Assembly: GCA_024763505.1 (NCBI GenBank)
Contig: JANTFI010000001.1
Coordinates: forward strand, 8,602 to 72,601
DNA: 64,000 nt
Direction: 5' to 3'
From: Gammaproteobacteria bacterium
GTDB lineage: Bacteria > Pseudomonadota > Gammaproteobacteria > GCA-001735895
Part shown: positions 2,550 through 59,703 of the stretch, in pieces
Layout of the letters: each line of letters starts with the position of its first letter
How positions within the stretch are numbered: the first letter of the stretch is position 1
Translations under genes and position numbers: made by a program
The notes under the pieces: generated by a model
What the model was told of the DNA's origin: nothing
The model's database searches: none
What the model saw: only the letters and a program-made list of their open reading frames with translations

Positions 2550-2742
2550 GGTGGTTCCTCAAGGGAATATTGTTATGGGTTGATGTCTGCCCGGGATTCT
2601 CTTTCCGGGTACGTCTATTGTAGTGCAGATATTCGCCGGGCTCGGGAAAAAATTTTCGTACAAACCTTTTCGCGGACGGATGATTCAATTTGGCACGGTC
2701 TCTGCATTCTTTTCCGGGTACGCCCAACACAGGAGAAAATCA

Positions 2743-3527: not shown

Positions 3528-3535
3528 GTGATGAA

Positions 3536-4225: not shown

Positions 4226-4234
4226 GAGTCTGAT

Positions 4235-43232: not shown

Positions 43233-44027
43233 ATGTTCCTGAGACACGCACAAAATGCGTTGACATTGTCCTGGTATTTGAGTGTCGCATTGGTTATTTA
43301 TATCGGTTGGTCAGTCCGAGAGCAACGCTATCTGTTGGCTGAATCGGGTATTGGCTATTGGCTTGGCATTATCGGCGGAGCCATGATGCTGTTGCTTCTT
43401 TATTATCCGGTTCGTAAACGAAAGCCACGCTGGAAATATTCCGGCTCGATCAAATTCTGGTTTCGCTTCCACATGTTTCTGGGAATCGCGGGTCCAGTAC
43501 TGATTATTCTCCATTCCGGCTATCGACTGGGATCACTCAATGGCACGGTCGCATTTTTCTGCATGTTGATCGTGGCTGGCAGCGGGCTGATTGGCCGCTA
43601 TCTGTACCGGCGTATTCATCATGGCTTGTATGGCGAAAAAATCCGCTTCGAAGAGCTGTATCACAAGGATCAAAGCTGGGAAGAAAAGCTCGCAGAACTG
43701 AAGAATAAATATCCCGAACCGGTGGAAAAGCTCGGTGTTATTGAATCTCAACTGGTACAACACGGAGCCGCTGCCAGCCGTTCTCTCTGGTTTTACCAGT
43801 CGATGCAGTGGCAGTTGCAGACATTGAAGCGACAAATCATTCAGCAGTTGGGAAAAAATTCCGCAGACAGCGCCGGATTTCAGCAACGAATTCAAAGCCT
43901 GAAATCGATCACCAGCCTCGGAGTCCACGAGATTCTGTTTTCATACTGGCATATCCTGCATTTTCCCTTATTCATCATGCTGCTCATCTCCGGCATTACT
44001 CATGTCGTCGTGGTGCATTTTTACTAA
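43233..44027 (+). CDS. Polytopic His-rich membrane protein, candidate b-type cytochrome / quinol-side electron-transfer subunit.
   Basis: 264 aa. About 5 TM helices with conserved-looking His pairs (FRFHMFLGIAGPVLIILHSGY, YWHILHFPLFIMLLISGITHVVVVHFY). Its stop overlaps the start of the first multiheme cytochrome. Confidence 0.45.
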   Translation: MFLRHAQNALTLSWYLSVALVIYIGWSVREQRYLLAESGIGYWLGIIGGAMMLLLLYYPVRKRKPRWKYSGSIKFWFRFHMFLGIAGPVLIILHSGYRLGSLNGTVAFFCMLIVAGSGLIGRYLYRRIHHGLYGEKIRFEELYHKDQSWEEKLAELKNKYPEPVEKLGVIESQLVQHGAAASRSLWFYQSMQWQLQTLKRQIIQQLGKNSADSAGFQQRIQSLKSITSLGVHEILFSYWHILHFPLFIMLLISGITHVVVVHFY

Positions 44028-45592
44028 TGAAAAGGTTATGGACCACATTGTTTCTGCTGGCTCTACTGGTTAGCCAATCGGCCTGGGGTATCAGTCTGGA
44101 AAACCTGTTCTCTCCGGGTGAATTGATCGACGGGCATGCCAAAATCCAGCAAGATTGCAAGCAATGCCATGTGCGCGGGCGTGATCTCACGCAAAACGAT
44201 TTGTGTCTGGATTGCCATGAAAAGGTTAGCGCCGATGTCCACAACCGCAAGGGGTTTCATGGTCGTAGCGAACAAGTGGAATCCGTACAGTGTCGATCCT
44301 GCCATACCGATCACAAGGGCAGGGATGCCGATATTGTGTGGCTGGATCAGGATCGCTTCAACCATGAAATGAGCGATTACCGGCTGATTGGCAAGCACCG
44401 GCAAGCGAAATGCGAGAGTTGCCACGAGTCAGACAAACATTATCGCGAAGCCCCCTCGGCCTGCATTGATTGCCACAAGAAAGACGACGTGCACAAAAAC
44501 AAGCTGGGTAAAAAATGCGGGTCTTGCCATAACCCGAAAGCCTGGAGCAGTGAACAATTCGATCATGACCAGACGGCATTCAAACTCCGCTTTGCCCATA
44601 AACAAGTCGCCTGCGATCTTTGCCATGTCGAAAACCGCTACAAGAAAACGCCGAAAACCTGTGTTTCCTGTCATGCCATCAAGGATGTTCACCAAAACCG
44701 TTTCGGTAATGACTGCAAAGCCTGTCACAACACTGAAAAATGGGAAAAGCCGCGCTTCGATCACGACCGCAATACGCGTTTCAAACTCGAATCCAGTCAT
44801 CGTTCGGTTGGTTGCAACGCTTGCCATGCGCGTACCCGGCAAGCCTTACCCGGAAAAAAATCCAGTCCCCGTCGCTGTATTGCCTGCCACAAGCTCGATG
44901 ATGTGCATCAAGGCGAAAACGGAAAACGCTGTGAGCAATGCCATGCCGAGGATCGCTGGTCGAAAAACAGCTTTGACCATGATCAGGACACGAAATTTAA
45001 ATTGCGCGGCGCTCATGCCAAGGCCAGTTGCGAATCCTGTCATCAGAAAGATTTACGCGGAAAGAAAACCAGCCCGGCCTGTTACAGCTGCCACCAGCAT
45101 CAAGATGCACACAAGGGCCAGGAAGGGGAATCCTGCGAAACCTGTCATAACGATAAAAGCTGGTGGTTGGAAGATGTGCGCTATGACCATGATTTAAGCG
45201 ATTTTCCGTTGCTCGGCCAGCATGCCGTGGTCGGTTGCGAAGCATGCCATTTGTCTTCCGCGTTCAAGGATGTCAAGCAAGCCTGTGTCGATTGTCATGC
45301 AGAAGATGACATCCACGATCAGACTTTGGGGCAAAAATGCCAGCAGTGCCATAACCCGAACGATTGGCTGATTTGGCAATTCGACCACAATCGAACCGAT
45401 TTCAAACTGAAAGGCGCGCATGAAAAGCTGCATTGCCGGCTTTGTCATAACCGGCCAATGGAAAATGCAGTCGAGCTCAAGCAGCAATGTATCGACTGCC
45501 ATCGTGCCGATGATGTGCACGATGGCAATTTTGGCGGCGATTGCGAGCGTTGCCATAACCAGACAGATTTTTCTGTCATTCAAATCAATTAA
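44027..45592 (+). CDS. Multiheme c-type cytochrome with 21 CxxCH motifs, built from 7 triheme (c7-like) modules.
   Basis: 521 aa. Signal peptide MKRLWTTLFLLALLVSQSAWG. 21 CxxCH motifs counted by eye. Recurring module FDHDxTxFKLxGAHxxxxCxxCH...CxxCHxxDDVHxxxxGxxCxxCH. Confidence 0.85.
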   Translation: MKRLWTTLFLLALLVSQSAWGISLENLFSPGELIDGHAKIQQDCKQCHVRGRDLTQNDLCLDCHEKVSADVHNRKGFHGRSEQVESVQCRSCHTDHKGRDADIVWLDQDRFNHEMSDYRLIGKHRQAKCESCHESDKHYREAPSACIDCHKKDDVHKNKLGKKCGSCHNPKAWSSEQFDHDQTAFKLRFAHKQVACDLCHVENRYKKTPKTCVSCHAIKDVHQNRFGNDCKACHNTEKWEKPRFDHDRNTRFKLESSHRSVGCNACHARTRQALPGKKSSPRRCIACHKLDDVHQGENGKRCEQCHAEDRWSKNSFDHDQDTKFKLRGAHAKASCESCHQKDLRGKKTSPACYSCHQHQDAHKGQEGESCETCHNDKSWWLEDVRYDHDLSDFPLLGQHAVVGCEACHLSSAFKDVKQACVDCHAEDDIHDQTLGQKCQQCHNPNDWLIWQFDHNRTDFKLKGAHEKLHCRLCHNRPMENAVELKQQCIDCHRADDVHDGNFGGDCERCHNQTDFSVIQIN

Positions 45593-45875
45593 CGGAGCAG
45601 TGGCGTCGGCTTTACATTGGGCGGATGGTCATTGAGGCAGTGGAAGGCAGGGATGCCTCGAGAACGGGAAAGGCAGTTTTTTTTGGTTATTGTGGTGCAA
45701 GCCTTGTGCGGGTTGATGCGAAAACTTCTCGCTTATTCACAACTGTACTTAGGCAATAACCCACCGGGGAATGAATCCACCAGAAAAAGATTTTACCACT
45801 GCAAGATCCCGAATTCGTTTCGACCTGAATACATTACTTCAGGCCGAACCGGTTTCAGCCACTGAGGAGACGATC

Positions 45876-48035
45876 ATGAAGAACCGCACCGAAATCCGGG
45901 TAGAGCCGCAAACCCGCATGCATTACCAGCCATTCGCGTGGTTGCTGTTGATGTTTGCACTGTTGCTTGCATGGCAAAATGCCAGCTTCGCGGCCCAGCA
46001 ACCTTTTGATCATGATGACACCCGTTTCCCGCTGGATTTTTCTCATGCGCGCGTCAGTTGTGATTCCTGCCATCTGCAAGGCGTTTTCAAGGGCACACCG
46101 GTCAATTGTTCGGGATGTCATGCCAGTGCCAGCCGCATTCAGGCCAGTAGCAAGTCGCCTTCGCATATCAATAGTTCGAATGATTGTGAATTCTGTCATC
46201 AAAGCGGCAACTGGAATGTCGTCACGCGTGTTGACCATTTTGCCGTCAGCGGCAGTTGCCAGAGTTGTCACAACGGCATCAATTCGATGGGCAAAAATCC
46301 GCAACATATCCAGAGCAGCAACCAATGTGATGATTGCCATGTCACATCGAGCTGGAGCAATGCGGTTTTTGATCATGCTGGTGTCATCGGCAGTTGCGTC
46401 ACTTGCCACAATGGCAGTATCGCCACGGGCAAGCATCCAAGCCATATCCTGTCAACCCAGAATTGTGAAGATTGTCATCGAACCATCAGTTGGAAACCGG
46501 CCAGCCGGGTCGATCATGACGCCGTCATTGGCAGTTGCAGCAGTTGTCATAACGGTGTGTTGGCAGAAGGCAAGAATGCCACCCATATTGCAACGACCGC
46601 TCAATGCGACGAGTGCCACAATACCGTGTCCTGGTCATCGGCGACCTTCAATCATGATGGTGTGACTACAGGCTGTTCGAGTTGTCACAATGGCGCTGCC
46701 GCCAAAGGCAAGCATCCACAACATATCGCTTCGACCAATGAATGCGAAGCTTGTCATGCGATCAATCGCTGGGCTCCGGCAACCCGGGTCGATCATGATG
46801 CCGTGAGCGGTAGTTGTTCCAGCTGTCATAATGGTGTGATTGCGACTGGCAAGAGCGCTGACCATTTGAATACAAGCAGTGAATGCGACAGTTGTCATAG
46901 CACGATCAACTGGAATTCGGCCAGTTTCAACCATGATGGTATTACCGATGCCTGTTTCAGTTGCCATAACGGTGTGCAGGAGACGGGTAAAACGCCGCAA
47001 CATATTTCGACCACCAATGATTGCGAACTATGCCATGCACCGTTTGGCTGGGCGCCAGCAACAAGGGTGGATCATGATGCAGTTACCGGCACTTGCTCCA
47101 GTTGTCATAACGGTGTGACTGCCATCGGAAAGAGTCCGCAGCATATTGCCACCAACAGCGAATGCGACAGTTGCCACAACACTATCAACTGGATCTCGGC
47201 CAATTTTACCCATGACGGAATCACGTCTTCCTGCTCGAGTTGTCATAACAGTGTGCAGGCGACCGGCAAGAATCCGCAGCATATAGCCTCAAGCAATGAC
47301 TGTGAACTGTGCCATACCAGCATCGGCTGGATACCGGTGACCCGGGTCGACCATGATGCGGTGAGTGGAACATGCTCGAGTTGTCACAACGGTGTCACGG
47401 CAACCGGTAAAACCGCCGCTCATGTCACGACCAGTAGCGAATGTGATAGCTGTCATACATCCACGGTAAGTTGGAGTACGGTGAATTTTGATCATGCGGG
47501 CGTAACCGGAAACTGTATCAGTTGCCACGATGGTATTACGGCCACGGGCAAGAATCCTCAGCATGTCTCTACCACTAACGAATGCGTGCTATGCCATTCG
47601 ACGGTGGGCTGGGCGCCGGTCCTCAAGGTTGATCATGATGCGGTGCTGGGATCCTGTTCGAGTTGTCATAATGGCACCGTTTCTACCGGTAAGCCGGCAG
47701 ATCACTTTGTCACTGTCAAGGAGTGTGACTATTGTCATTCCACCGTTTCCTGGCCGAGTCTGACCTTTACTCATCAGTCGGTGAATTACCCGGGTGACCA
47801 TCGCGGTTCACTCAGTTGCGTGAGCTGTCACACCGCCAACAGTGAAACCATGATCTGGCCGTTCCCGGCTTATAAGCCAGATTGCGCAGGCTGTCACGCC
47901 AGTGACTATCGACAAAACAAGCATGAAAACTTTAATAATGGCTTCTTCACGGTCAGTGAATTGAGAGACTGCACCGGTGCCTGCCACTCTTCTGCAGGGC
48001 ATCACCGGATTACTGACAGGAGTTGGGGAAATTGA
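45876..48035 (+). CDS. Multiheme c-type cytochrome with 27 CxxCH plus one CxxxCH, built from about 13 tandem paired-CXXCH repeat units.
   Basis: 719 aa. GAGGAG Shine-Dalgarno 7 nt upstream. Signal peptide. Repeat unit about 45 aa: HIxSSNxC[DE]xCH...W...[VF][DN]HDxVxGxCSSCHNGVxATGKxPQ. Confidence 0.85.
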   Translation: MKNRTEIRVEPQTRMHYQPFAWLLLMFALLLAWQNASFAAQQPFDHDDTRFPLDFSHARVSCDSCHLQGVFKGTPVNCSGCHASASRIQASSKSPSHINSSNDCEFCHQSGNWNVVTRVDHFAVSGSCQSCHNGINSMGKNPQHIQSSNQCDDCHVTSSWSNAVFDHAGVIGSCVTCHNGSIATGKHPSHILSTQNCEDCHRTISWKPASRVDHDAVIGSCSSCHNGVLAEGKNATHIATTAQCDECHNTVSWSSATFNHDGVTTGCSSCHNGAAAKGKHPQHIASTNECEACHAINRWAPATRVDHDAVSGSCSSCHNGVIATGKSADHLNTSSECDSCHSTINWNSASFNHDGITDACFSCHNGVQETGKTPQHISTTNDCELCHAPFGWAPATRVDHDAVTGTCSSCHNGVTAIGKSPQHIATNSECDSCHNTINWISANFTHDGITSSCSSCHNSVQATGKNPQHIASSNDCELCHTSIGWIPVTRVDHDAVSGTCSSCHNGVTATGKTAAHVTTSSECDSCHTSTVSWSTVNFDHAGVTGNCISCHDGITATGKNPQHVSTTNECVLCHSTVGWAPVLKVDHDAVLGSCSSCHNGTVSTGKPADHFVTVKECDYCHSTVSWPSLTFTHQSVNYPGDHRGSLSCVSCHTANSETMIWPFPAYKPDCAGCHASDYRQNKHENFNNGFFTVSELRDCTGACHSSAGHHRITDRSWGN
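46080..47720 (+). repeat. Intragenic tandem DNA repeats (about 135 bp unit, about 12 copies, diverged) encoding the paired-CXXCH modules.
   Basis: Recurrent ...gtcgatcatgatgc(g/c)gt...ggcagttgc(a/t)c(c/g)agttgtcataa(c/t)gg... segments at regular spacing through the gene. Confidence 0.7.
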
Positions 48036-48104
48036 TGCGGGCAGGCTTCGATGTTGTTGGCCGGGGTTTTCCTGCCAACCAGACCAAAAAGGATTTGAAA
48101 ACTG

Positions 48105-50234
48105 ATGATAATTAAAAAAATAGTTGCGGCACTCCTGTTGCTCGTGCTTGTCTGGTCTCCTGTTGCCATGCCAGCGGAAACTGTATTATCGGGTGTCGAA
48201 ATGGTTTTGAAAAAATCGGCCGGAACAACACATCTCAAGCAGTACACACTGATTCTGGCCTCTTATGAAAAAATGCCGGCCGGTACTGAGCTAAAAAAGT
48301 TGTCGCGTCTCGACAGTAACTGGGTTTATTTCACCAAAGTGAATGTAAAAAACCGGGTTTATTATCGCCTTGTGGTCGGAAATTATTCGACTCTGAAACA
48401 GGCTCGCAGCGTGCTTGCCGGGTTTCGCAAACAATTCAGCGGAGCCTGGATTCATAAAAGAGATACGTCAGAAATAAAACTGTTGGCTGTAAAAGTGCCG
48501 ATGCTGACCCGCCCATCGGTAACTCGGCCAGGTTCGAAAACATTGCCGGTCAAACCGGCACAAAAAGCAACGTCGTCGGTTACAAATTCCGATATGAAAA
48601 AGGAGCAAGCGCTTACCCGCGACGGGAGGCAATCCAGAAATGTTTTCGCCGAAAAACTGTTGTCGCAATCACGCCAACTGTTGCTGGACCGCAAATACGC
48701 GCAACTGGTTAAGGTCAGCAACAAGGTTATAGAAGTCGGCAATGCCGAACAAAAGCAACGGGGCATGCAATTCGCCGGACTGGCGCGAGAGCGGCAACGC
48801 AAGTTCGCTCAGGCGATTGCGATTTATAAGCGCTTTCTCGAGCAATACCCGGACAGTTCATTGGCACGCAAGATTCAATCCCGCCTGAATACCCTCAAAA
48901 CCATGAATCTTGAACCCAGAACCCGAATGGCCAGACGCAGCAAACAACGCAGTGATGATGGCTGGTCGCTGACCGGGTCCTTTTCCCAGTATTACCGTAA
49001 GAATTTCAATGACACGACCGAGAATGGAAATGAAGTGATCAATGATTCGCTACTTACTGATATCAGTCTGTACGCGCGAAATCGTACACAAAGCAGCACA
49101 ACTATCATCCGATTCGATGGAGGGCTGGTGAGTGATTTTCTGGATGATAGCAACGACAGCAACCTGAGTCGCGCTTCGCTGCGTTATACCAGCCACGATG
49201 CCGACTATGAAGTTATCGCCGGGCGCCAATCGAGAACGGCAAAAGGCGTACTCGGTCGATTCGACGGGGTGGTCTATAGTGGGCTGTCACATGAAAACTG
49301 GGATTACAGCCTGTATGCAGGCTTTCCGGTGCAATCTTCGTCCGATGGTTTCAAGTCCGCACGGCGTTTTATTGGCAGCAATCTCAGTCTGCAACCGGCG
49401 GAAAAAATGGAGCTGGATCTGTATCTGCTGTTTCAGCAAAACGAAGGCTTGACCGATCGTCAGGCGGTCGGCTCACAGCTGCAATACCGCAGTGACAAAG
49501 GGTTCCTGTTCACGATTTTTGATTATGATTTTTTCTATAAAGAGATCAATGACTTGACCGCGATTACGAATTATCGCTTCAGCTCTGTCCTGACTCTGAA
49601 TCTTACCCTTAACTACCGAAATTCGCCGACGCTTACGAGCTTGAACGCGATTCAGGGGCAGGGGGTGACTACATTCGAAGAGTTGACCCGTTTATACCCG
49701 GAGGATGAGATTTATCAGTTGGCCGCAGACCGGACCAGCAAAAGTAAAAATCTGTTTCTTAACGTCAGTTACCAAATCGATCAAGCGCACCAGCTCGATA
49801 CCAGTATTGCGGTTTCGCAAGTCGAAGAAACGGTGGCTTCGGGCGGCGTCGAAGCGGCTCCGGCCAGTGAGGATTTCAATCTATCGAGCAGCTACACCAT
49901 TAACGGTTATTTTCTGCCGGATGATTTCACCACCTTCGGGCTCAGATATTCTGACACCACGTCTTCCCACAGTCTGTCGTTTCGCTTGCGAGCACGGTTC
50001 AAGGGAAGTGAAGGATGGCGATATGATCCGAGACTCCAACTGGATTATCGCGAAAGTAAAACCAGCGGTGTTCAACAGTGGATTGTAAGGCCGAAATTCA
50101 AGGTCAAATATAAACCCAACAAGAAGACAAGCCTGGAAGCCAGTGTCGGCATCGATTATTCAAATTTTGATTTACCGGAGCTGGACGACCAACTGACGAC
50201 CAATTTCCTTATCGGTTATCTTTACCGGATATAA
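48105..50234 (+). CDS. Secreted SPOR-domain + TPR-like + C-terminal beta-barrel protein (putative outer-membrane component).
   Basis: 709 aa. Signal peptide. SPOR-like segment (VYFTKVNVKNRVYYRLVVGNYSTLKQARSVLAGFRKQFSGAWI). Helical TPR-like region. About 430-aa C-terminal region with alternating-hydrophobic, aromatic-rich beta-strand pattern ending ..IGYLYRI. Confidence 0.6.
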   Translation: MIIKKIVAALLLLVLVWSPVAMPAETVLSGVEMVLKKSAGTTHLKQYTLILASYEKMPAGTELKKLSRLDSNWVYFTKVNVKNRVYYRLVVGNYSTLKQARSVLAGFRKQFSGAWIHKRDTSEIKLLAVKVPMLTRPSVTRPGSKTLPVKPAQKATSSVTNSDMKKEQALTRDGRQSRNVFAEKLLSQSRQLLLDRKYAQLVKVSNKVIEVGNAEQKQRGMQFAGLARERQRKFAQAIAIYKRFLEQYPDSSLARKIQSRLNTLKTMNLEPRTRMARRSKQRSDDGWSLTGSFSQYYRKNFNDTTENGNEVINDSLLTDISLYARNRTQSSTTIIRFDGGLVSDFLDDSNDSNLSRASLRYTSHDADYEVIAGRQSRTAKGVLGRFDGVVYSGLSHENWDYSLYAGFPVQSSSDGFKSARRFIGSNLSLQPAEKMELDLYLLFQQNEGLTDRQAVGSQLQYRSDKGFLFTIFDYDFFYKEINDLTAITNYRFSSVLTLNLTLNYRNSPTLTSLNAIQGQGVTTFEELTRLYPEDEIYQLAADRTSKSKNLFLNVSYQIDQAHQLDTSIAVSQVEETVASGGVEAAPASEDFNLSSSYTINGYFLPDDFTTFGLRYSDTTSSHSLSFRLRARFKGSEGWRYDPRLQLDYRESKTSGVQQWIVRPKFKVKYKPNKKTSLEASVGIDYSNFDLPELDDQLTTNFLIGYLYRI

Positions 50235-50345: not shown

Positions 50346-51065
50346 CTATTTGCCCCGAATCTGGTTTTTCATATCCTTGTAATCGATATGGCGCACATCC
50401 TTGCCGTGCACCAGATATAACACGTATTCACAGATATTGGTGGCGTGGTCTCCAATGCGTTCGAGTGCGCGCGCGCACCAGGCTACACGCAGAGCATTCT
50501 TGATCGTGCGCGGGTCTTCCATCATGACGGTTATCAACTGGCGCATCAGCGCTTCGTATTCATTGTCGATCTTGGTGTCTTTCTTGATGGTTTTCAGTGC
50601 AGCCTGATCATCGACCCGGGCAAAGGCATCGAGCGCATTGTGCAACAACTTGCTGACCAGGTTGCCGAGATGTTCGAGCTTGGCGTAATCGGTCGAGGTC
50701 GAGCCTTCATCGATTAATTCCAGTTCGAACTGGCCCAGTTTTTCAGCCTGATCACCGATCCGTTCGAGATCGGTAATGGTTTTGATGATGGCGATAATCA
50801 GACGCAAGTCGGTGGCCGCCGGTTGACGTCGTGCCAGAATCTGCACGCACATTTCGTCGATCTTGACTTCCATCGAATTGACCACATGATCGCCTTCGGC
50901 GACTTGCCGGGCGACTTCAGAATTTGACTCCAGCAATGCCTGAATGCCGGAATTTACCTGGGTTTCTACCAGCCCGCCCATGGCCAGCACATGATTGCGG
51001 ATGTCTTCCAGTTCGCTGTCGAAGCGGCGAGAAATATGCCCGCCGATGGGTGATTCTTGATCCAT
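50346..51065 (-). CDS. phoU: Phosphate-specific transport system accessory protein PhoU.
   Basis: 239 aa, two PhoU repeats. Confidence 0.9.
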   Translation of the reverse strand: MDQESPIGGHISRRFDSELEDIRNHVLAMGGLVETQVNSGIQALLESNSEVARQVAEGDHVVNSMEVKIDEMCVQILARRQPAATDLRLIIAIIKTITDLERIGDQAEKLGQFELELIDEGSTSTDYAKLEHLGNLVSKLLHNALDAFARVDDQAALKTIKKDTKIDNEYEALMRQLITVMMEDPRTIKNALRVAWCARALERIGDHATNICEYVLYLVHGKDVRHIDYKDMKNQIRGK

Positions 51066-51080
51066 GCTTGTTCCTCTTGA

Positions 51081-51923
51081 TTATCCGAATTTGCCGGTAA
51101 TGTAATTCTCGGTCAACTGGTGACGTGGATTAGTGAAAATCTGATTGGTTTGCCCGACCTCGATCAATCGCCCGAGGTGGAAATAGGCCGTACGTTGAGA
51201 TACCCGCGCTGCCTGCTGCATCGAGTGGGTGACGATGGCGATGGTGAAGTTTTCACGTAATTCATCAATCAATTCCTCGATGGTCGCTGTGGCGATCGGG
51301 TCGAGTGCCGAGGCCGGTTCATCCATCAGGATTACTTCCGGGCTGACCGCGATAGTGCGGGCGATGCACAAGCGCTGTTGCTGGCCACCGGACAAACCGG
51401 TACCGGGGGCATCGAGGCGATCCTTGACTTCCTTGAACAGCCCCGCCTTTTGCAAACTGGTTTCAACGATTTCATCGAGTTCGGATGAATTACGCGCCAA
51501 CCCATGAATGCGTGGGCCGTAGGCGACATTATCGTAAATCGACTTGGGAAATGGATTCGGTTTCTGGAACACCATGCCGACCCGGGCGCGAAGCAACACT
51601 GGATCCATCGACTTGCCATAGATATTCTCGCCATCGAGTTTCAATTCACCTTCGACCCGGCAGATCGGTATGGTGTCGTTCATCCGGTTGAGAGAACGCA
51701 GATAAGTGGATTTTCCACAACCGGAAGGGCCGATCAGGGCGATTACTTCGTTTTCGGCGATATCCAGCGAAGCATCGAAAATCGCCTGCTTTTCGCCGTA
51801 GAACACGTTGACGTTGCGGGTGGAAAACTTGGCATTTTCAACCAGGTTTTCACCGATGGTCCCATCAAATTGAATATCCTGATGCGCATCGATAACCGGT
51901 GCTGTTTCATGTAATGTTGTCAT
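51081..51923 (-). CDS. pstB: Phosphate ABC transporter ATP-binding protein PstB.
   Basis: 280 aa. Walker [18 protein letters not shown], Walker B ILMDEP. Confidence 0.92.
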
Positions 51924-51983
51924 AAGACTGCTTTGAATCGTTAAAATTGAATAGCCGAAAAACGTTTATTGCTGCAAAACACG

Positions 51984-53249
51984 TTACCAGCGGCGCTCAA
52001 ACTGCTTGCGTAAATAAATGGCGATCGCATTCATGGTGACCAGAAATGCCAGCAATACCAGAATCGCGGCGGCCGTCAGCGCGGTAAAAGCTCGTTCTGG
52101 ACTGTCAGCCCAGAGATAGATTTGTACCGGCAATACGGTCGCCGAATCGAGTATGCCACCGGGCACATCGACGATAAAGGCGACCATGCCGATCATCAGC
52201 AACGGGGCGGTTTCACCGAGCGCCTGCGCCATACCGATAATCGCACCGGTGAGAATGCCAGGCATGGCCAGCGGCAGTACATGGTGAAATACGGTTTGCA
52301 TGTGCGAAGCGCCCAGTCCAAGCGCAGCTTCCTTGATCGAGGGTGGAACCGATTTAATTGCGGCTCGTGCCGAGATGATGATGGTAGGCAGGGTCATCAA
52401 CGACAAGACGATACCACCGACCAGCGGCGCGGAGCGAGGCATACCAAAAAAATTGATGAACACGGCCAGACCGAGCAAGCCAAAAACAATGGATGGAACT
52501 GCGGCCAGATTATTGATATTGACTTCGATAATATCGGTAAGCTTGTTTTTCGGTGCGAATTCTTCCAGATACACCGCTGCGCCGATACCGATTGGCAACG
52601 AAATCACCAGTGTGACCAACAGGGTCCAGAACGACCCGACCAATGCCCCCCGGATGCCGGCCTGTTCCGGTTCACGCGAATCACTGTTTTGAAAAAAGGT
52701 ATCGTTGAACCGGGTACGAATCTTGCCCTGATCCATCAATTGCTGAATCATTTCGGCCTGTTTCGGCTTGATCCGGCTGGTAGATTTTTTCAATTTATAA
52801 AAGGTGTCAACATCGTCATCGGCGGTCACCCACAAGCTGATCTTGCCTTGCTGGATCAGTTCCGGCTCGCTCAGAATCAAGTCTCGCAATTGATATTCGG
52901 CCCCGCTTGAGATCAGCCGATAGAGCAATTTCTTGTCTTTGCGTTTTTTGACGTCTGGAAAGACTTCACGCAAGGATTTTTTCAGTACGCCGCCAAAGTC
53001 GACGGTACGTAAACTTTCGGGATCAATACGAGTGTCTGGCTGCAACCCCAGGGTTTCCCAATCGATCGGAACCTGCAACTGAATCTCGGTTTTTTGGAAC
53101 GCCGGTAGTGCTTTTAACGTGATATCCAGCAACAAGGTAGCGAGAAACACAAAGCCGATCCACACGGCAATCTTGCCATACCATTGAAAGCGCTTTTCAC
53201 GTGCATAGCGTTTTTTCAGGCTCAGTTTGACCTGTTCGGTATTATTCAT
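51984..53249 (-). CDS. pstA: Phosphate ABC transporter permease PstA.
   Basis: Permease with EAA-like loop. Start taken at MNNTEQVKL (8-nt overlap with the pstC stop). The track ORF extends to 53291. Confidence 0.85.
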   Translation of the reverse strand: MNNTEQVKLSLKKRYAREKRFQWYGKIAVWIGFVFLATLLLDITLKALPAFQKTEIQLQVPIDWETLGLQPDTRIDPESLRTVDFGGVLKKSLREVFPDVKKRKDKKLLYRLISSGAEYQLRDLILSEPELIQQGKISLWVTADDDVDTFYKLKKSTSRIKPKQAEMIQQLMDQGKIRTRFNDTFFQNSDSREPEQAGIRGALVGSFWTLLVTLVISLPIGIGAAVYLEEFAPKNKLTDIIEVNINNLAAVPSIVFGLLGLAVFINFFGMPRSAPLVGGIVLSLMTLPTIIISARAAIKSVPPSIKEAALGLGASHMQTVFHHVLPLAMPGILTGAIIGMAQALGETAPLLMIGMVAFIVDVPGGILDSATVLPVQIYLWADSPERAFTALTAAAILVLLAFLVTMNAIAIYLRKQFERRW

Positions 53250-54612
53250 ATTGCTCTCGATATTTTCTGACGATGTGCAGGGCGAAGACATTCAATACCA
53301 GCGTGGTGACGAACAGCATCAACCCCAAAGCGAAGGCGGCCAGTGTTTTCGGGCTATCGAACTCCTGATCACCGGTCAGCAATGTGACGATTTGGACGGT
53401 TACCGTGGTGACCGCTTCCAGCGGGTTTGCGGTCAGGTTGGCCGACAGCCCGGCGGCCATCACTACAATCATGGTTTCACCAATGGCGCGGGACGCTGCC
53501 AGCAAAACTCCGCCGACTATGCCGGGCAGGGCGGCTGGAATAATTACCTGCTTGATCGTTTCCGATCGGGTTGCGCCGAGGCCCAGTGAGCCATCTCGCA
53601 TCGCTTGAGGCACGGCGGTGATGACATCGTCTGAGAGTGAGGAAACGAACGGAATAATCATTACGCCCATCACCACGCCAGCCGCCAGTGCGCTTTCGGA
53701 AGAGACATCAAGCCCGATAGACTGCCCCAGGTCTCGGATGAAGGGTGCGACGGTCAGGGCGGCAAAAAAGCCATACACCACGGTTGGGATACCGGCCAGA
53801 ATTTCCAGCGCGGGTTTGGCGGTTGCGCGAAACCGCTGGCTGGCATATTCCGACAGGTAAATGGCAGAGAACAGTCCCACCGGTACCGCGATCAGCAGTG
53901 CGATGGCTGAAATCAGCAGCGTACCGAAAAATAGTGGAACCGCACCGAAGGCACCGGAAGACCCGGCCTGGTCGGCGCGGATTGCGATTTGCGGGCTCCA
54001 TTTGGTGCCAAACACAAAATCGAAAAAATTGACTGACTGGAAGAAACGCAATGATTCGAACAATACCGACAGCACGATGCCGATGGTGGTGACGATCGCA
54101 ACGCCTGAGCAAATAAACAGTGCGACTCTGATGACGGTTTCGGTATGGCTGCGTGCTTGTGTCCTGAGCAGAGAATTGGTCATAGCATAGACAATGCCGG
54201 AAAGACCCAGCAACACCACCAGTACGGTCAGGATCCAGTTACTTTCCTGTTGCAATTGCTGGTAGCGATCGACCGCGCGAATCAACACCGGATCATCGCG
54301 GGTATCATTATTTTGAATCGCCAGCAGGATATCGTTCATGTACAGGTCGACCGAGGCATTTGACTGGGTCAACACCGATTGCGGCAGCACCTCGCGGATT
54401 TGTTCATGAATATACACGGGTTTGAGAGCGGACCAGGCGACTAACAGGATCAGCGCCGGTAATCCACTCCAGATGGCGGTGTAATAGCCATAGTGTTTGG
54501 GTAAAGCCTTCAGGCGCCCGTTTTTCTGAGCACGGGCTGCACGGAATCTGCCCGCAAGAAAGGCTAAAATCGATAAGCCGATTATCAGCAGAATTAGAAC
54601 AGATGCAGTCAT
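53242..54612 (-). CDS. pstC: Phosphate ABC transporter permease PstC (long form).
   Basis: 456 aa polytopic permease upstream of pstA. Confidence 0.88.
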   Translation of the reverse strand: MTASVLILLIIGLSILAFLAGRFRAARAQKNGRLKALPKHYGYYTAIWSGLPALILLVAWSALKPVYIHEQIREVLPQSVLTQSNASVDLYMNDILLAIQNNDTRDDPVLIRAVDRYQQLQQESNWILTVLVVLLGLSGIVYAMTNSLLRTQARSHTETVIRVALFICSGVAIVTTIGIVLSVLFESLRFFQSVNFFDFVFGTKWSPQIAIRADQAGSSGAFGAVPLFFGTLLISAIALLIAVPVGLFSAIYLSEYASQRFRATAKPALEILAGIPTVVYGFFAALTVAPFIRDLGQSIGLDVSSESALAAGVVMGVMIIPFVSSLSDDVITAVPQAMRDGSLGLGATRSETIKQVIIPAALPGIVGGVLLAASRAIGETMIVVMAAGLSANLTANPLEAVTTVTVQIVTLLTGDQEFDSPKTLAAFALGLMLFVTTLVLNVFALHIVRKYREQYE

Positions 54613-54722
54613 CAGGCGTGGTCAGGTAATGTGAAAAGGATGGGATTATACACAGCTTCAAGCAGGCACAAAAACAAATGCCCGCAATCGTGCGGGCACT
54701 TATAAGGTCATGACTATCCAGC

Positions 54723-55763
54723 TTACATTTTCAGCTTTTCAGAGTTTTTGACGCGCTTGCGCATAGCGGCACGGTCGGCCTTAGACAGTGGAATCAATCC
54801 CTTGTCGATCAGGTAACCTTCGTCACCGAAAGCGGCTTCACTGGTGAATTCGACGAGGTAATCCTGCATACCTGGGATGGCTTTTTTATGCGCATTCTTG
54901 ACATAAAAGAACAGTGGGCGAGAGATCGGGTAAGAACCATCGGCAATGGTTTCGAACTCAGGCGCTTCACCTTCCACAATGGAACCCTGTACATAGTCGT
55001 CATTCTGTTCGAGGAAAGAGAAACCGAAGATACCCATAGCTTTCGGGTTGCTTTCGAGCTTCTGCACGATCAGATTGTCGTTTTCACCGGCTTCAATATA
55101 CGCACCGTCTTCACGAACCGTGTGGCAGATCGACTTGTACTTCTTTTTGTCTTTCTTTTTCATCGCCTTGATCCAGTCAACCTTCTTGCAACCACCTTCC
55201 ATTGCGAGTTCGGCAAAAGCATCCCGAGTGCCGGAAGTCGGTGGCGGCCCAAGCACTTCAATCTTGTAATTGGGCAGAGACGGGTTCACCTGATTCCAGG
55301 TCTGGTAAGGGTTTTCAATCAACTTGTGACCACCTTTCGGATCCGGAACCTGTTTGGCCAGTGCCAGAAACATATCCTTGCGAGAGAGTTTGAATTGCGG
55401 GGCTTTTTTGGAGTTTGCAAAAGCGATTCCATCATAGCCGATCTGTATTTCAGTAATATCGGTAACGCCGTTTTTCATGCATTTTTTGTATTCAGAAGAC
55501 TTGATCGCCCGCGAGGCATTGGTGATATCCGGCGTATTCAGGCCTGCACCGGCACAGAACAGCTTCATGCCACCGCCGGAACCGGTGGATTCGATTTTGG
55601 GGGTTTTATGACCGCTTTTCTTGCCGAATTTTTCAGCTACTACAGTCGCAAAAGGATAAACCGTGGAAGAACCCACAATATTAATGGTGTCACGACCGGC
55701 GGCTTGTGCCTGTAGTGAAATCAAACTGCAACTGATCGCAGTAGCGAGAACCAGGTGTTTCAT
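54723..55763 (-). CDS. pstS: Phosphate-binding periplasmic protein PstS.
   Basis: 346 aa. Signal peptide MKHLVLATAISCSLISLQAQA. PBP fold motifs (GSSTVYPF, GSGGG). Confidence 0.9.
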   Translation of the reverse strand: MKHLVLATAISCSLISLQAQAAGRDTINIVGSSTVYPFATVVAEKFGKKSGHKTPKIESTGSGGGMKLFCAGAGLNTPDITNASRAIKSSEYKKCMKNGVTDITEIQIGYDGIAFANSKKAPQFKLSRKDMFLALAKQVPDPKGGHKLIENPYQTWNQVNPSLPNYKIEVLGPPPTSGTRDAFAELAMEGGCKKVDWIKAMKKKDKKKYKSICHTVREDGAYIEAGENDNLIVQKLESNPKAMGIFGFSFLEQNDDYVQGSIVEGEAPEFETIADGSYPISRPLFFYVKNAHKKAIPGMQDYLVEFTSEAAFGDEGYLIDKGLIPLSKADRAAMRKRVKNSEKLKM

Positions 55764-55826
55764 AAATACTCCTCAGTAGGATAGTGAATTGACATAAATC
55801 AGTGCGGCGCATTATCGGTGGTGAAT

Positions 55827-55844
55827 ATGACAGAAATGTTACAA
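55827..55844 (-). promoter_or_regulatory. Pho box upstream of pstS.
   Basis: Minus-strand TTGTAAC-ATTT-CTGTCAT (two 7-mers, 4-bp AT spacer; the second is a perfect CTGTCAT). About 64 bp upstream of the pstS ATG. Confidence 0.55.
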
Positions 55845-55941
55845 AAGAGAATGAATTGTTAAACAAATTCATCTAGCCTTGCGCAAAACCACGATAAACC
55901 TGTTTTCTTCCTGTCATCCAGCATTACGTCGAGCGGTATCT

Positions 55942-57510
55942 ATGGATCTTAAAAACATTAAACAGATCGAACAAGCCACTCAACCCAGCCAGGGCGAATT
56001 GTTCCGGCTTGGCATCGGATTTCTTTTTGTCATAATCATCCTGCTGTTCACCGGCTCTGCCTACGCCAGTATCGAGGGCGGATTTCTGCTGATTAGCGCC
56101 GCCATGATCGGTGGTTATATGGCGATGAATATCGGTGCCAACGATGTTGCCAATAACGTCGGACCGGCGGTGGGTTCACGCGCATTAACCCTGTTTGGGG
56201 CGATTGTAATTGCCGCGATTTTCGAAGCGGCGGGTGCCTTGATCGCCGGTGGCGATGTAGTCAGCACGATTAAAAAAGGCATCATCGATCCGTCCCTGAT
56301 TTCCGATACCGATACCTTTATCTGGCTGATGATGGCTGCTTTGCTGGCCGGCGCTATCTGGCTCAATATCGCGACCTATCTGGGTGCGCCGGTGTCGACC
56401 ACGCACTCGATCGTCGGCGGCGTGCTCGGAGCCGGCATTGCAGCCGGGGGCTTTGCCATTGCCAATTGGAGCAAAATGGGCATGATTGCGGCCAGTTGGG
56501 TGATTTCACCCATGCTCGGCGGTTTGATCGCCGCGTTCTTCCTGTATTTGATCAAGCGCAAGATCACTTACCGGACGGATATGCGGAAAGCCGCCAGTAA
56601 GGTCGTTCCGATTCTGGTTGCGATCATGGCCTGGGCGTTTTCGACCTATCTGATACTGAAAGGCTTGAAGAAGCTGGTGAAAGTCGATTTTCTGACCGCT
56701 CTTGGCATCGGGCTGGTGCTGGCAGTGGTGATTTATTTTATTGTAAGGCCGCTGATAGCCCGGGCTTCTCAATCCTTGAGTAATGACAAGGAAGGGGTGA
56801 ATCGGCTGTTTACCTTGCCACTGATTTTCGCCGCGGCTCTACTCAGCTTTGCCCACGGTGCCAATGATGTCGCCAATGCGGTCGGGCCGTTGGCTGCCAT
56901 CAATGATGCGATTTTACATGGCGGTGTACACCAGAAGGCGAGCATCCCGCTATGGGTGATGATGGTTGGAGCGATCGGCATCGCGATTGGCCTGGCCTTG
57001 TATGGACCGAAATTGATACGCACGGTTGGTTCCGAGATCACCGAACTGGACCAGATGCGAGCATTTTCGGTGGCGATGGCGGCGTCGATTACTGTCATTA
57101 TCGCTTCCCAGCTGGGGCTACCTGTCAGCTCGACCCATATCGCCGTCGGCGCCGTGTTCGGTGTGGGATTCCTGCGCGAATATCTGAAAGCCAGCTATGC
57201 CCAGATGGAAGATCAGATCGTGCAGCATCATCAAGGTAAGGATAAACAAGTGGTGGAAGCCTTTCTGGAAGATTTCAGACGTGCCAGCGTCGATGAAAAA
57301 GGCAAGTTGATCAAGCAGTTAAAGCAACACTCGGCCGACGCCGATCTCAGCCGTAAAGAGCGCAAGGCACTGGCCAAAGTCTATCGCAAGGAATTGGTCA
57401 AACGCTCGGCCTTGATGAAGATCGTGGCGGCCTGGCTGATTACTGTACCGGCTTCCGGCTTTTTGGCAGCGATCCTGTATTTCACCATACGCGGCATGCT
57501 GTTGCCCTGA
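55942..57510 (+). CDS. Inorganic phosphate transporter, PiT family, with large central cytoplasmic loop.
   Basis: About 522 aa from MDLKNIKQIEQ. Duplicated PiT signature GANDVANxVGP occurs twice (GANDVANNVGPAVG, GANDVANAVGPLAA). Confidence 0.85.
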   Translation: MDLKNIKQIEQATQPSQGELFRLGIGFLFVIIILLFTGSAYASIEGGFLLISAAMIGGYMAMNIGANDVANNVGPAVGSRALTLFGAIVIAAIFEAAGALIAGGDVVSTIKKGIIDPSLISDTDTFIWLMMAALLAGAIWLNIATYLGAPVSTTHSIVGGVLGAGIAAGGFAIANWSKMGMIAASWVISPMLGGLIAAFFLYLIKRKITYRTDMRKAASKVVPILVAIMAWAFSTYLILKGLKKLVKVDFLTALGIGLVLAVVIYFIVRPLIARASQSLSNDKEGVNRLFTLPLIFAAALLSFAHGANDVANAVGPLAAINDAILHGGVHQKASIPLWVMMVGAIGIAIGLALYGPKLIRTVGSEITELDQMRAFSVAMAASITVIIASQLGLPVSSTHIAVGAVFGVGFLREYLKASYAQMEDQIVQHHQGKDKQVVEAFLEDFRRASVDEKGKLIKQLKQHSADADLSRKERKALAKVYRKELVKRSALMKIVAAWLITVPASGFLAAILYFTIRGMLLP

Positions 57511-57540
57511 GCCTGACCGGTTGAGATTGCCTAAAGATGT

Positions 57541-57620
57541 GGCTCGGTCTAAGTCCAGTTATCTAGGTTCAGATATCTAGGTTCAGATATCTAGTTTCAG
57601 TCGTAACCCGAGCCGGATTT
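57541..57620. repeat. Three tandem 14-bp direct repeats (GTTCAGATATCTAG, each containing the palindrome AGATATCT) enclosed by a GGCTCGG...CCGAGCC inverted repeat, in the convergent pit/phoR intergenic region.
   Basis: Read directly: ggctcggtctaagtccagttatctag gttcagatatctag gttcagatatctag tttcagtcgtaacccgagcc. Confidence 0.7.
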
Positions 57621-58966
57621 CAAACATGTCCCTGATCGGGGATGGATGGCATGGGTGGTTCAAGTGTCGATGGCGTTGCCGGAATGGTCCGATAAGCCGG
57701 AAACGTCACACAAAAACGACTGCCCTGATTTTTCCGGCTGTCTATCGACAGTTTTCCACCATGCCGGAGCGCCGCCTGCTCGACGATGGCCAGCCCCAGC
57801 CCAGAGCCGGTAATTTGTCTGGCAGTGGTGGTTCGCCCCCGGTAGTAACGATTGGTCAGTAGCGGAATCTCTTTTTCATCCAGTCCTTCACCTTGATCTT
57901 CGACGTAAAATTGCAGTTCTCCCTGGTCGGTTTGGCTCCAGCCGACCCGAACCGGATGTTCCGCATCACTGTATTTCAAAGCATTTTCCAACAGGTTTTT
58001 GCAAATGCAGTGGATGTCTGTACTGTTGCCGCGCAATTTGTCAGTGGTCTCGTGGTGGCACTGCAGGCGCTCGGACCCGCACTGTACCGCCAAAGCCGAC
58101 AGCACCGATTGCATTGTCGCCCGGATATCGATCTCTTCGCCTTCGTCCGGCTGCAGGCTGGAGCTTTCGATTCGTGACAAGTGGAGTAAATCACGAATCA
58201 AGTCCTGCATGCGTCGGGATTGTTGATCGATCACGGATACTGACTTCTTGCCGATTTCGCTCAGCCCCGGCTCCATCTGCAAGATTTCGGCGTATCCGAC
58301 GATCGAAGTCAAAGGAGTTTTCATTTCATGGGAAGCATTGGCGATGAAATCTTTCAAGGCTTGTTGCAGTTTCACTTGTTCACTGATGTTGCGGATAATG
58401 ACCAGCCGCTGATTATCGCCGAAACTGACGATCTTGTACTGCAGGGTTTGCCGATGATCGAATGCGCAAGGGATTTCAATATGCGGTTGTGCATCCGGGT
58501 GATGCAGGTAGTCGAGAAATTCCGGCTGTCGTATCAAATTGCTGATAACCTGTCCCTGATCCTGACGCTGCAGCCGCAGTAAGGTCGTGGCGGCATCGTT
58601 AAACCAGACAATTTCGTACTGGCCATTCAACAACACGGTGGCGTCGGGCAGGGCAGCGATATTGGTATTGAGACGACGCAACAGTTCCTTGGTTTTTTTC
58701 TTGCGCTTGTTGTGAATCTTTTTCTGGCGGTAGAGATGTCGAATAATCAATCCGGCCAGCCCGCCATGGTCATCGACCTCGACCAGCTTTCCTCCTCTGT
58801 CCAACCATTTCTCGAGCGTATAGAGTTGGTAATACAGCATGCCTGTCAGGGCCAGTAACGGCAAGGCAAATGCGATAACCCAATTGCCAAGGGTCAGGCC
58901 GATGACCACTATTGCGAGCAACGTCAACAGTATCGGCGTTTTTTCGTATTGCCATATCTTGAACAT
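57620..58966 (-). CDS. phoR: Phosphate regulon sensor histidine kinase PhoR.
   Basis: TM helices, then PAS-like, HisKA (ASHEMKTPLTSIVGY) and HATPase domains. Start taken at MFKIWQYEK, overlapping the phoB stop. The track ORF extends to 59110. Confidence 0.85.
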   Translation of the reverse strand: MFKIWQYEKTPILLTLLAIVVIGLTLGNWVIAFALPLLALTGMLYYQLYTLEKWLDRGGKLVEVDDHGGLAGLIIRHLYRQKKIHNKRKKKTKELLRRLNTNIAALPDATVLLNGQYEIVWFNDAATTLLRLQRQDQGQVISNLIRQPEFLDYLHHPDAQPHIEIPCAFDHRQTLQYKIVSFGDNQRLVIIRNISEQVKLQQALKDFIANASHEMKTPLTSIVGYAEILQMEPGLSEIGKKSVSVIDQQSRRMQDLIRDLLHLSRIESSSLQPDEGEEIDIRATMQSVLSALAVQCGSERLQCHHETTDKLRGNSTDIHCICKNLLENALKYSDAEHPVRVGWSQTDQGELQFYVEDQGEGLDEKEIPLLTNRYYRGRTTTARQITGSGLGLAIVEQAALRHGGKLSIDSRKNQGSRFCVTFPAYRTIPATPSTLEPPMPSIPDQGHV

Positions 58967-58976
58967 GAGTGAGATG

Positions 58977-59663
58977 TTATCCCCGGGTTGAAAAGCTGTA
59001 TCCGGTACCGCGAACGGTTTTGATGCATTGGTCCAGTTTATAGGGTTTGAGTATCTTGCGTAAACGTAAAATATGGACATCGATGGTGCGATCACCCAGA
59101 TAAGCATCATCGCCCCATACTGCGGTCAATATCTGATCACGTGTGTAGACACGGTTTTCATGCAGCATGAAATATTTTAATAGCTGGTATTCCTTTTTCG
59201 ACAGGATGACTTCCTGGTCGCCGACCCATACCTGATGGTTTTCGCTGTTGAGGCTTAAATCACCGCTTTTCACCAGAAAGGTTTCTTCGTTATAGTGCGC
59301 AGGGCGCCGCAGCAATGCCTTGATTCGTGCGTGCAATTCGCGCAGCGATAACGGTTTGGTCATGTAGTCGTCAGCGCCTGAATCGAGTCCTTCAATCTTG
59401 TCTGTTTCTTCGGAACGGGCAGTCAGCATAAGGGTGGGGATCTGGCTGAATCCGCTTTGCCGGCGTAACCAGCGAATCAATTCGATGCCCGAACTGTCCG
59501 GCAGCATCCAGTCAACAATCAGGCAATCCGGCTTTTGTTCAGGGATCCGTTTCTTGGCCGTTTTGACATCAGCGCATTGCTCAACATGATAGCCCGCTTG
59601 GGTCAGCGACAGGGCGATCATTTCGCGAATCGGAGTATCGTCTTCAATTACCAGTATGTTCAT
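58977..59663 (-). CDS. phoB: Phosphate regulon response regulator PhoB (OmpR family).
   Basis: 228 aa from MNILVIEDDTPIREMIA. Receiver Asp context (LIVDWMLPDSSGIE). Winged-helix C-terminus. Confidence 0.9.
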   Translation of the reverse strand: MNILVIEDDTPIREMIALSLTQAGYHVEQCADVKTAKKRIPEQKPDCLIVDWMLPDSSGIELIRWLRRQSGFSQIPTLMLTARSEETDKIEGLDSGADDYMTKPLSLRELHARIKALLRRPAHYNEETFLVKSGDLSLNSENHQVWVGDQEVILSKKEYQLLKYFMLHENRVYTRDQILTAVWGDDAYLGDRTIDVHILRLRKILKPYKLDQCIKTVRGTGYSFSTRG

Positions 59664-59703
59664 GGTGGCTTCAGCGTAAATGGGCGTATTCCAGCAGTCC
59701 ATT

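Follow-up and report, generated by a model that had tools for sequence, protein, structure and literature searches.

We analyzed a 64,000-nucleotide (nt) stretch of DNA from a gammaproteobacterium (assembly GCA_024763505.1, contig JANTFI010000001.1, positions 8,602 to 72,601 of the forward strand; hereafter the window), in which four genes, g1 to g4, encode an inner-membrane protein (IMP), two multiheme cytochromes (MHC) and an outer-membrane barrel protein. An earlier sequence-only reading of this DNA had taken the four genes for an undescribed trans-envelope electron conduit. We found that the cluster almost certainly belongs to PCC3, described by He, Barco, Emerson and Roden in 2017 (PMC5566968), so it is not undescribed, and the conduit reading is the same hypothesis as that in the PCC3 literature. 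The explanation that we consider best overall, with a probability of roughly 0.6, is a PCC3-class conduit forming a six-gene unit, in which electrons enter through a module resembling an NADPH oxidase. Three features look new beyond published PCC3: a divergent flavoprotein/ankyrin gene pair as partner, natural fusions of the flavoprotein with the IMP, and SPOR and CpoB-like domains on the barrel protein. The SPOR/TPR domains and the flavoprotein/ankyrin partner of PCC3 are not mentioned in the searchable literature.

PCC3 is defined by a porin, an MHC that is extracellular, an MHC that is periplasmic, and an IMP (PMC5566968). According to He et al. (PMC5566968), the extracellular MHC has a median of 34 hemes and is rich in S/T/A/G and built of repeats, the periplasmic MHC has a median of 21 hemes, and the IMP has approximately 300 aa and five transmembrane (TM) helices, with SGxxG on TM4 and Wx3Hx13H on TM3 and TM5. 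In the window, one strand carries all four components, first the IMP, then the 21-heme and the 28-heme cytochrome, and last the barrel. The 264-aa g1 has five TM helices, both Wx3Hx13H motifs and SGLIG; g2 has 21 hemes, repeats and a low residue-to-heme ratio; g3 has 28 heme motifs and is S/T/A/G-rich and repeat-built. Homology to a named PCC3 cluster was established through that of Amphritea atlantica DSM 18887 (locus L057), which contains genes for an IMP, a 21-heme and a 63-heme cytochrome and a porin homolog. The E-values of its matches to the window were 4e-31 for g1 (cut by the end of the locus), 4e-163 for g2, 0 for g3 and 7e-86 for g4. The same numbers, 21 and 63 hemes, are quoted for this strain by He et al. 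(PMC5566968).

The window cluster is fairly distant from its relatives, as g4 was 46-48% identical to that of the nearest species-level genome and 30% identical to that of Amphritea. Its component order is the same as in Slit_1446-1449 of Sideroxydans lithotrophicus ES-1, whose other PCC3 cluster is Slit_0867-0870. We scanned one genome per species and obtained 505 loci with a g4 relative, that is, at least 505 species-level genomes; gene order and neighbourhood were examined in the best 80 of these loci. Among them the order IMP, 21-heme cytochrome, variable-heme cytochrome, barrel was the rule, and thus the recurrence of the four-gene order, which the sequence-only reading had proposed to look for, was observed. 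PCC3 was later surveyed in Gallionellaceae (with AlphaFold models), Sideroxydans CL21 and Leptothrix.

The most conserved companion of the cluster was the divergent flavoprotein/ankyrin operon, whose presence had been noted correctly in the earlier reading, where it was treated as a mere neighbour. The flavoprotein combines a TM helix at its N-terminus with two 4Fe-4S motifs and an FAD and NAD(P) domain that is TrxR/YpdA/FNR-like (Pfam: Pyr_redox_3, 1.8e-44; Fer4_10/Fer4_7). Among solved structures, YpdA and ferredoxin-NADP reductases of the TrxR type are nearest to it, and its translation has no Cys after residue 105, i.e. no redox-active Cys pair. The stretch behind the TM helix is rich in K/R, which places the body of the protein in the cytoplasm. 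The ankyrin protein matched Ank_2 (E 3.5e-75) and Sel1 (2.4e-11). Because the start and stop codons of the two genes overlap by 4 nt, we regard them as one operon.

We observed the flavoprotein gene in divergent orientation, adjoining the IMP gene, in 33 of the 36 genome loci that had enough upstream sequence to be evaluated. Ankyrin homologs stood beside the flavoprotein gene in 20 genome loci (with three further matches elsewhere in the locus) and in 5 metagenome loci; in most loci that extend far enough, the ankyrin gene came next after the flavoprotein gene. An identical flavoprotein/ankyrin layout, with Pfam labels, was present on an independently annotated contig (L081). Further, a reciprocal scan of metagenomes with the flavoprotein alignment gave 28 loci with a full-length homolog; L116, of different architecture, was set aside. 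An IMP homolog accompanied the flavoprotein in 21 of the 28, and the two genes were divergent, co-directional (IMP, flavoprotein, cytochrome), rearranged within the locus or fused. The IMP was absent within the available sequence of L084, L087 and L090, and the flanks were too short in 4 of the 28.

The fused genes were found in L102 and L104, where a single open reading frame (ORF) encodes the TM anchor, two 4Fe-4S motifs, the flavin domain and an IMP domain in which both Wx3Hx13H motifs are present. A search with the L102 fusion yielded at least 120 protein clusters: all 120 top clusters were 580-876 aa long, nearly all of approximately 740 aa, at a coverage of 76-100%, and most came from Planctomycetota. 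The linkage between flavoprotein and IMP survives rearrangement, and this, together with their fusion, is strong comparative evidence that they form one working unit; judging from these sequences, we consider their coupling rather likely. The divergent flavoprotein/ankyrin pair is part of a conserved module, and the functional unit in this lineage is probably six genes, not four.

We examined the motifs of g1, which are W76x3H80x13H94 (nt 43458-43514), S117GLIG (43581-43595) and W239x3H243x13H257 (43947-44003). The four His residues were invariant among 41 homologs, and the Wx3Hx13H and SGxxG motifs were retained in 39-41 of the 41. The AlphaFold2 model of g1 (pLDDT 84) contains five long TM helices and a helical insert of approximately 100 residues (129-230), which is predicted to be cytoplasmic. 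The loop 55-72 is rich in K/R; therefore, by the positive-inside rule, the loop between TM2 and TM3, and hence the insert, would be cytoplasmic and the C-terminus periplasmic. The domain order of the fusions demands the same orientation and agrees with the predicted N-in topology. H80 and H243 would then hold one heme b near the cytoplasmic face, and H94 and H257 another near the periplasmic face. Two stacked hemes held in this manner are an arrangement familiar from ferric reductase/NOX domains and from cytochrome b (see also He et al., PMC5566968). We predict from the motifs that g1 is a di-heme b carrier; the earlier suggestion of a b-type, non-NapC inner-membrane partner agrees with the published view of PCC3.

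The IMP family comprised 3,350 representative clusters (E <= 1e-3). No match was obtained when g1 was searched against Ferric_reduct (PF01794), even at E <= 1. The IMP part of some fusions was just below the Pfam thresholds, with Ferric_reduct at 25-26 bits (cut-off 28), DUF4405 and Ni_hydr_CYTB. Among the longer IMP-family proteins in the representative library, one had SPOR, one had TPR repeats and the others had no Pfam domain; none was a flavoprotein fusion. These are P0399 and P0439, in which an N-terminal SPOR domain or TPR repeats are present, both domain types found also on g4; they could be real fusions or gene-calling artefacts. One genome locus (L037, 169-957 and 2038-2979) carried two IMP paralogs upstream of the cytochromes.

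g2 has 21 CxxCH motifs, which account for all of its 42 Cys, and 25 further His; it consists of seven triheme c7-like units of approximately 68 aa, with 24.8 residues per heme. g3 has 27 CxxCH motifs and one CxxxCH (CTGACH, residue 699), and consists of six tandem 93-aa tetraheme units (approximately nt 46149-47825) flanked by conserved N- and C-terminal domains; a 279-bp tandem repeat was detected in its DNA at 46768-47284. Its composition is S 13.1%, T 8.9%, A 8.1% and G 6.8%. Pfam identified Cytochrome_C7 and Cytochrom_c3_2 on both proteins (Cytochrome_C7 on g2 at 7e-26), in keeping with the c7-like modules named in the earlier reading. The spare His in g2 and g3 suffice for bis-His ligation of all hemes. 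By our estimate, 21 or 28 CxxCH motifs in one frame are not a matter of chance, as the expectation is well below one per such protein. The non-repeat C-terminal domain of g3 (residues approximately 640-719, nt 47820-48032) is conserved, with the CxxxCH kept in 33 of 47 orthologs, and is a candidate docking end. We found no lipobox in g2 or g3 and no known surface-export signal in either.

Exactly 21 hemes were counted in 40 of the 42 g2 orthologs, while g3 orthologs ranged from 7 to 73 hemes. These numbers agree with a span that is fixed in the periplasm and a reach that is free outside the cell. At approximately 9 Å per heme, as in the Mtr structure, 21 hemes would cover roughly 19 nm. An argument on the periplasmic span from heme number was also made by Hoover et al. 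The TAA stop of g1 and the ATG of g2 share one base (TAATG, 44025-44029); this translational coupling suggests a stoichiometric inner-membrane complex. A GAGGAG Shine-Dalgarno site precedes the ATG of g3. The adjacency of g3 and g4 suggests an outer-membrane pair, and their homologs were side by side in nearly every locus, even in one that lacks IMP and g2 (L051). The earlier reading had listed the 264-aa membrane protein with paired His and the stop/start overlap, the 521-aa cytochrome with 21 CxxCH, the 719-aa cytochrome with 27 CxxCH and one CxxxCH behind a Shine-Dalgarno site, and the 283-nt gap between them; the ORF listing, the motif count and the coordinates agreed with all of these. 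The gap that it placed between g3 and g4 exists as well, at 69 nt and not 70 bp.

Pfam detected SPOR at residues 47-116 of g4 (25.1 bits, cut-off 21) and TPR_6 at residues 225-251. The AlphaFold2 model, obtained with 41 homologs, had a mean pLDDT of 88 and showed, at approximately residues 47-118, a beta-alpha-beta-beta-alpha-beta domain; residues 134-173 form a disordered linker, 174-266 the TPR helices and 287-708 the barrel region. In the DNA these parts are SPOR 48243-48452, the linker, CpoB-like TPR 48624-48902 and barrel 48963-50228. The SPOR score is above the Pfam gathering cut-off, the secondary-structure elements of the model follow one another as in a SPOR fold, and the profile of the g4 family matched the SPOR domain of DamX, 2lfv (E 1.8e-6). 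Of the parts that had been read from the sequence of the 709-aa protein, SPOR and TPR were recovered by both Pfam and AlphaFold2 and the barrel by the AlphaFold2 model. The barrel has approximately 22 strands, as counted from the secondary-structure list of the model, and is not the 26-strand barrel of the MtrB type; its likeness to substrate porins and ushers of 18-24 strands is at least equal to that with MtrB. A helical loop (residues 512-543, nt 49638-49733) is highly conserved and holds several family-invariant residues. It is plausible that the SPOR and CpoB-like TPR domains tether the barrel to peptidoglycan and the periplasmic cytochrome.

Taken together, we consider it quite likely that the cluster is a trans-envelope conduit. 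In the mechanism that we propose, a membrane-tethered cytoplasmic flavoprotein would pass electrons from NAD(P)H to FAD and on to two 4Fe-4S clusters. Through the inner membrane they would travel on two b hemes stacked within the IMP, with its five TM helices. The 21-heme g2, of fixed length and translationally coupled to the IMP, would span the periplasm, and the 28-heme g3, repeat-built and of a length that varies between species, would lead them through the barrel of approximately 22 strands and beyond. Through its SPOR and CpoB-like TPR domains the barrel protein would be anchored to peptidoglycan, and it might be held to the periplasmic cytochrome as well. For the secreted Sel1/ankyrin protein, the probable role is that of a scaffold or assembly factor in the periplasm; it may also chaperone the cytochromes. 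There is a precedent in Pseudomonas, where a heme enzyme (KatB) is supported by the periplasmic ankyrin protein AnkB.

We favour outward flow, from NAD(P)H to an extracellular or insoluble acceptor, because the input resembles an NADPH oxidase, the membrane potential opposes inward electrons and the potential of NAD(P)+ is low; we give the outward direction an even chance. More tentatively, at somewhat less than even odds, PCC3 may be the outer part of a split NADPH-oxidase-like enzyme, i.e. a quinone-independent outlet for NAD(P)H into a peptidoglycan-held wire of approximately 50 hemes, and not primarily a quinone-linked Fe(II) oxidase. PCC3 is among the most widespread predicted extracellular electron-transfer systems, and the field regards it as a candidate iron oxidase acting on the quinone pool. 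If the NAD(P)H-linked entry is true, its expected direction, energetics and ecological role would all change. Marine sulfur-oxidising and sediment Gammaproteobacteria would gain quinone-independent electron dumping on extracellular acceptors, and sediment bacteria, sulfur oxidisers, relatives of tubeworm symbionts and Planctomycetota would share an electron outlet. The idea is testable with three or four defined proteins, and the natural fusions are ready-made constructs for biochemistry.

Several points weigh against this explanation. Papers from 2022-2026 call PCC3 "functionally unverified". The direction of flow is argued from thermodynamics and not from an observation. For g1, whose heme b is predicted from its motifs, neither Pfam nor NCBIfam gave a match, and hhalign gave a probability of 0.2 when the g1 family was compared with MsrQ of the window, a true Ferric_reduct protein. 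g3 is without a lipobox. Further, no flavoprotein gene lies next to the IMP gene in L037 (within the available 2 kb), L067 and L069; the second ES-1 cluster is flanked by an HD phosphohydrolase and an aldolase, not by a flavoprotein, and Slit_0866 is, judged from its name, a putative homolog.

The published PCC3 model runs inward: extracellular Fe(II) or a reduced solid would feed the outer cytochrome, then the 21-heme cytochrome and finally the IMP, acting as a quinone reductase of the cytochrome b type that supplies the respiratory chain, and the flavoprotein would be separate or regulatory. He et al. (PMC5566968) proposed it from the presence of PCC3 in Fe(II) oxidisers and in hosts from Fe-rich habitats. 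PCC3 occurs commonly in Sideroxydans, iron-oxidising cells of Sideroxydans CL21 had raised levels of the IMP gene from one PCC3 copy, and the clusters without an adjoining flavoprotein gene suit this model as well. However, both PCC3 clusters of ES-1 were down-regulated on Fe(II) as compared with thiosulfate, which is a poor fit with a dedicated Fe(II) oxidase, and the authors judged them uninvolved under their conditions. No quinone site was identifiable, and one would not expect a simple quinone reductase to be linked so tightly, through rearrangements, to an Fe-S flavoprotein of the NAD(P) type, or to be fused with it. We regard the inward model as unlikely. The unit could instead be a reductase in the manner of ferric reductases and NADPH oxidases, serving not energy conservation but Fe(III) reduction for uptake, detoxification or reduction of soluble oxidants or formation of reactive oxygen species at the surface, with heme chains that merely bridge the envelope. 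Its predicted architecture is that of eukaryotic FRE/NOX and bacterial MsrQ-Fre, in which a cytoplasmic flavin domain is joined by a di-heme TM domain whose His pairs are on two helices, and outward flow, judged from the topology, would dissipate and not build the membrane potential. This reading is improbable in our view: approximately 50 hemes plus a barrel of their own would be costly for assimilatory reduction, the spread of 7-73 hemes in the outer cytochrome suggests a reach toward solids, and no iron-uptake genes are conserved beside the cluster.

The remaining alternative does without an outer-membrane conduit. Both cytochromes would be periplasmic, as an electron store or as a wire to enzymes of the periplasm, and the barrel protein, of structural or transport function, would be their operon-mate only. 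This would account for two cytochromes devoid of lipobox and known surface-export signal and for a barrel model that fits substrate porins and ushers of 18-24 strands no worse than MtrB; the conserved helical loop might occlude the lumen, and SPOR and CpoB-like domains are otherwise those of cell-envelope and division proteins. We consider it very improbable, since the adjacency of g3 and g4 homologs is near-universal, a hallmark of porin-cytochrome pairs that persists where IMP and g2 are missing (L051), and 7-73 hemes are incompatible with a protein fitting a fixed gap. Outward transfer through a PCC3-class conduit with flavoprotein-linked entry thus remains the reading that we prefer.

We compared the cluster with known systems. 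MtrCAB, MtoAB and PioAB follow the same logic, in that a multiheme cytochrome sits inside a barrel and a further cytochrome lies outside, with the genes for cytochrome and barrel side by side, and the window cytochromes gave weak matches, at the level of heme motifs, to DmsE/MtrA and MtrC domain models. However, those systems have 10 and 10 hemes, compared with 21 and 28 here; g3 is not a lipoprotein, as it would be in MtrCAB, and the window IMP is of the b type with five TM helices, in contrast to the tetraheme NapC/CymA. On TIGR03508 (MtrA/DmsE decaheme, cut-off 192.2 bits) g3 reached 97.1 bits and g2 17.8 bits, and no NCBIfam model reached its cut-off on any of the four proteins. Membership in the Mtr, Pio or Geobacter Pcc systems was therefore rejected from the family scores and the barrel comparison, and the earlier statement that no component is a plain Mtr/Pcc homolog held, with family scores far below the cut-offs.

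As predicted, the IMP and flavoprotein would resemble NADPH oxidase, ferric reductase (PF01794) and MsrQ in having two His pairs, each spaced by 13 residues, on two TM helices that could stack two b hemes across the membrane, and a putative cytoplasmic FAD/NAD(P)H partner; in Planctomycetota the flavin and TM parts are on one polypeptide. The differences are that g1 has no significant sequence or profile similarity to them and has five TM helices compared with six. The flavin module of the window is TrxR/YpdA-like with two 4Fe-4S clusters, not FNR-like, and is N-terminal in the fusions, not C-terminal. The predicted acceptor is a multiheme cytochrome here and O2, Fe(III) or MsrP there. The IMP of PCC4 shows the motif pattern of the window IMP. 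In PCC4 subgroup II an Fe-S gene (pfam13247) is found upstream of that for the IMP, and in one genome both were annotated as a single gene (PMC5566968), which sets a precedent for an Fe-S partner. According to He et al. (PMC5566968), the IMPs of PCC3 and PCC4 are not significantly similar in overall sequence. The periplasmic cytochromes of PCC4 are small and three in number, with 4, 5 and 10 hemes, and PCC4 has none that is extracellular. The Uet complex of Ca. Tenderia is also a predicted conduit, and its undecaheme and triheme proteins are unlike those of the window.

On two long Planctomycete contigs, L164 and L165, the stop codon of the flavoprotein-IMP fusion overlaps the start of a gene for a g2-like cytochrome with 23-26 hemes. 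It is followed (L164 10001-19729; L165 10001-17944) by a signal-peptide protein of 553-557 aa ending in ...QKRF or ...QQRF and then by proteins with 7-22 hemes. An ...RF ending is common in outer-membrane proteins. The contigs share with the window a homologous flavoprotein, IMP domain and g2-like cytochrome, but have flavoprotein and IMP as one polypeptide, and the putative outer-membrane protein lacks SPOR and TPR; its homology to g4 was rejected (hhalign probability 0.2). The cluster looks like a parallel conduit, and we found no description of this type of Planctomycetota cluster in the literature.

Table 1. Position of the PCC3 cluster, its divergent partner genes and the regions between them in the window.
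Feature	Position (nt)	Strand	Characteristics
g1, PCC3 inner-membrane protein (IMP), 264 aa	43233-44027	+	5 hydrophobic segments, His pairs H80/H94 and H243/H257
g2, 21-heme cytochrome c (PCC3 "periplasmic MHC"), 521 aa	44027-45592	+	Sec-type signal peptide
Spacer between g2 and g3, 283 nt	45593-45875	+	
g3, 28-heme cytochrome c (PCC3 "extracellular MHC"), 719 aa	45876-48035	+	27 CxxCH and one CxxxCH
g4, outer-membrane protein, 709 aa	48105-50234	+	Signal peptide, no Cys
Fe-S flavoprotein, 439 aa, membrane-anchored, cytoplasmic	41794-43113	-	Pfam, TM helix, two 4Fe-4S motifs
Secreted Sel1 and ankyrin-repeat protein, 671 aa	39782-41797	-	Pfam; N-terminus resembles a signal peptide
Divergent intergenic region, 119 bp, AT-rich; presumed promoters of both operons	43114-43232		

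Promoter-like sites were present on either strand of the divergent intergenic region, in a number no higher than that in shuffled sequence, and no operator-like inverted repeat was found in this region. The 283-nt spacer contains a hairpin and a U8 run, with a fold z of only -1.97 relative to shuffles; it had no Rfam match and no significant structure. Promoter and terminator predictions in the spacer and the divergent region were no commoner than in shuffled sequence. In most related PCC3 loci the gap between the cytochrome genes is much shorter or the ORFs overlap, which makes the 283 nt of the window unusual; the spacer could allow separate regulation of the outer module.

A PCC3 cluster with an outer cytochrome of 1825 aa was present on L081 (13303-22925), a Sedimenticolaceae-like contig of 1.2 Mb. 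Behind it come a two-component system, a dockerin/SdrD-like protein of 2040 aa and two multicopper oxidases, a possible link to metal oxidation.

Downstream of g4 and convergent with it lies a complete phosphate cluster (50346-59702; phoU, pstB, pstA, pstC, pstS, a PHO4-type transporter and phoR), which the sequence-only reading had named as a neighbour of the four genes. This adjacency is not conserved in related loci and therefore seems coincidental. A functional tie to the Pho/Pst genes was rejected, as the matches in those loci were sporadic and weak, as for any ABC ATPase.

Elsewhere in the window, a pair of msrP (Oxidored_molyb) and msrQ (Ferric_reduct PF01794, E 5.5e-19) is located at 25962-27505; the genome thus owns a bona fide FRD-family di-heme protein in addition to the cluster. 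Of the genes from which a sulfur or metal redox lifestyle had been suggested, rhodanese was detected at 1761-2549 (-) with E 9e-26; the DsrC-like gene at 15747-16265 (+) does have a match, but a weak and partial one (E 4.9e-7). At 30125-36489 (-), the gene of a secreted 1158-aa protein containing TSP3 and PKD repeats adjoins that of a 920-aa Ser/Thr kinase with TPR repeats, and no homologs of either were seen in related loci. The sole Rfam family detected in the window was tmRNA (RF00023, 205.7 bits), with its gene at 20440-20814 (-). The flagellar genes flgG, flgH and flgI are located at 2580-5338.

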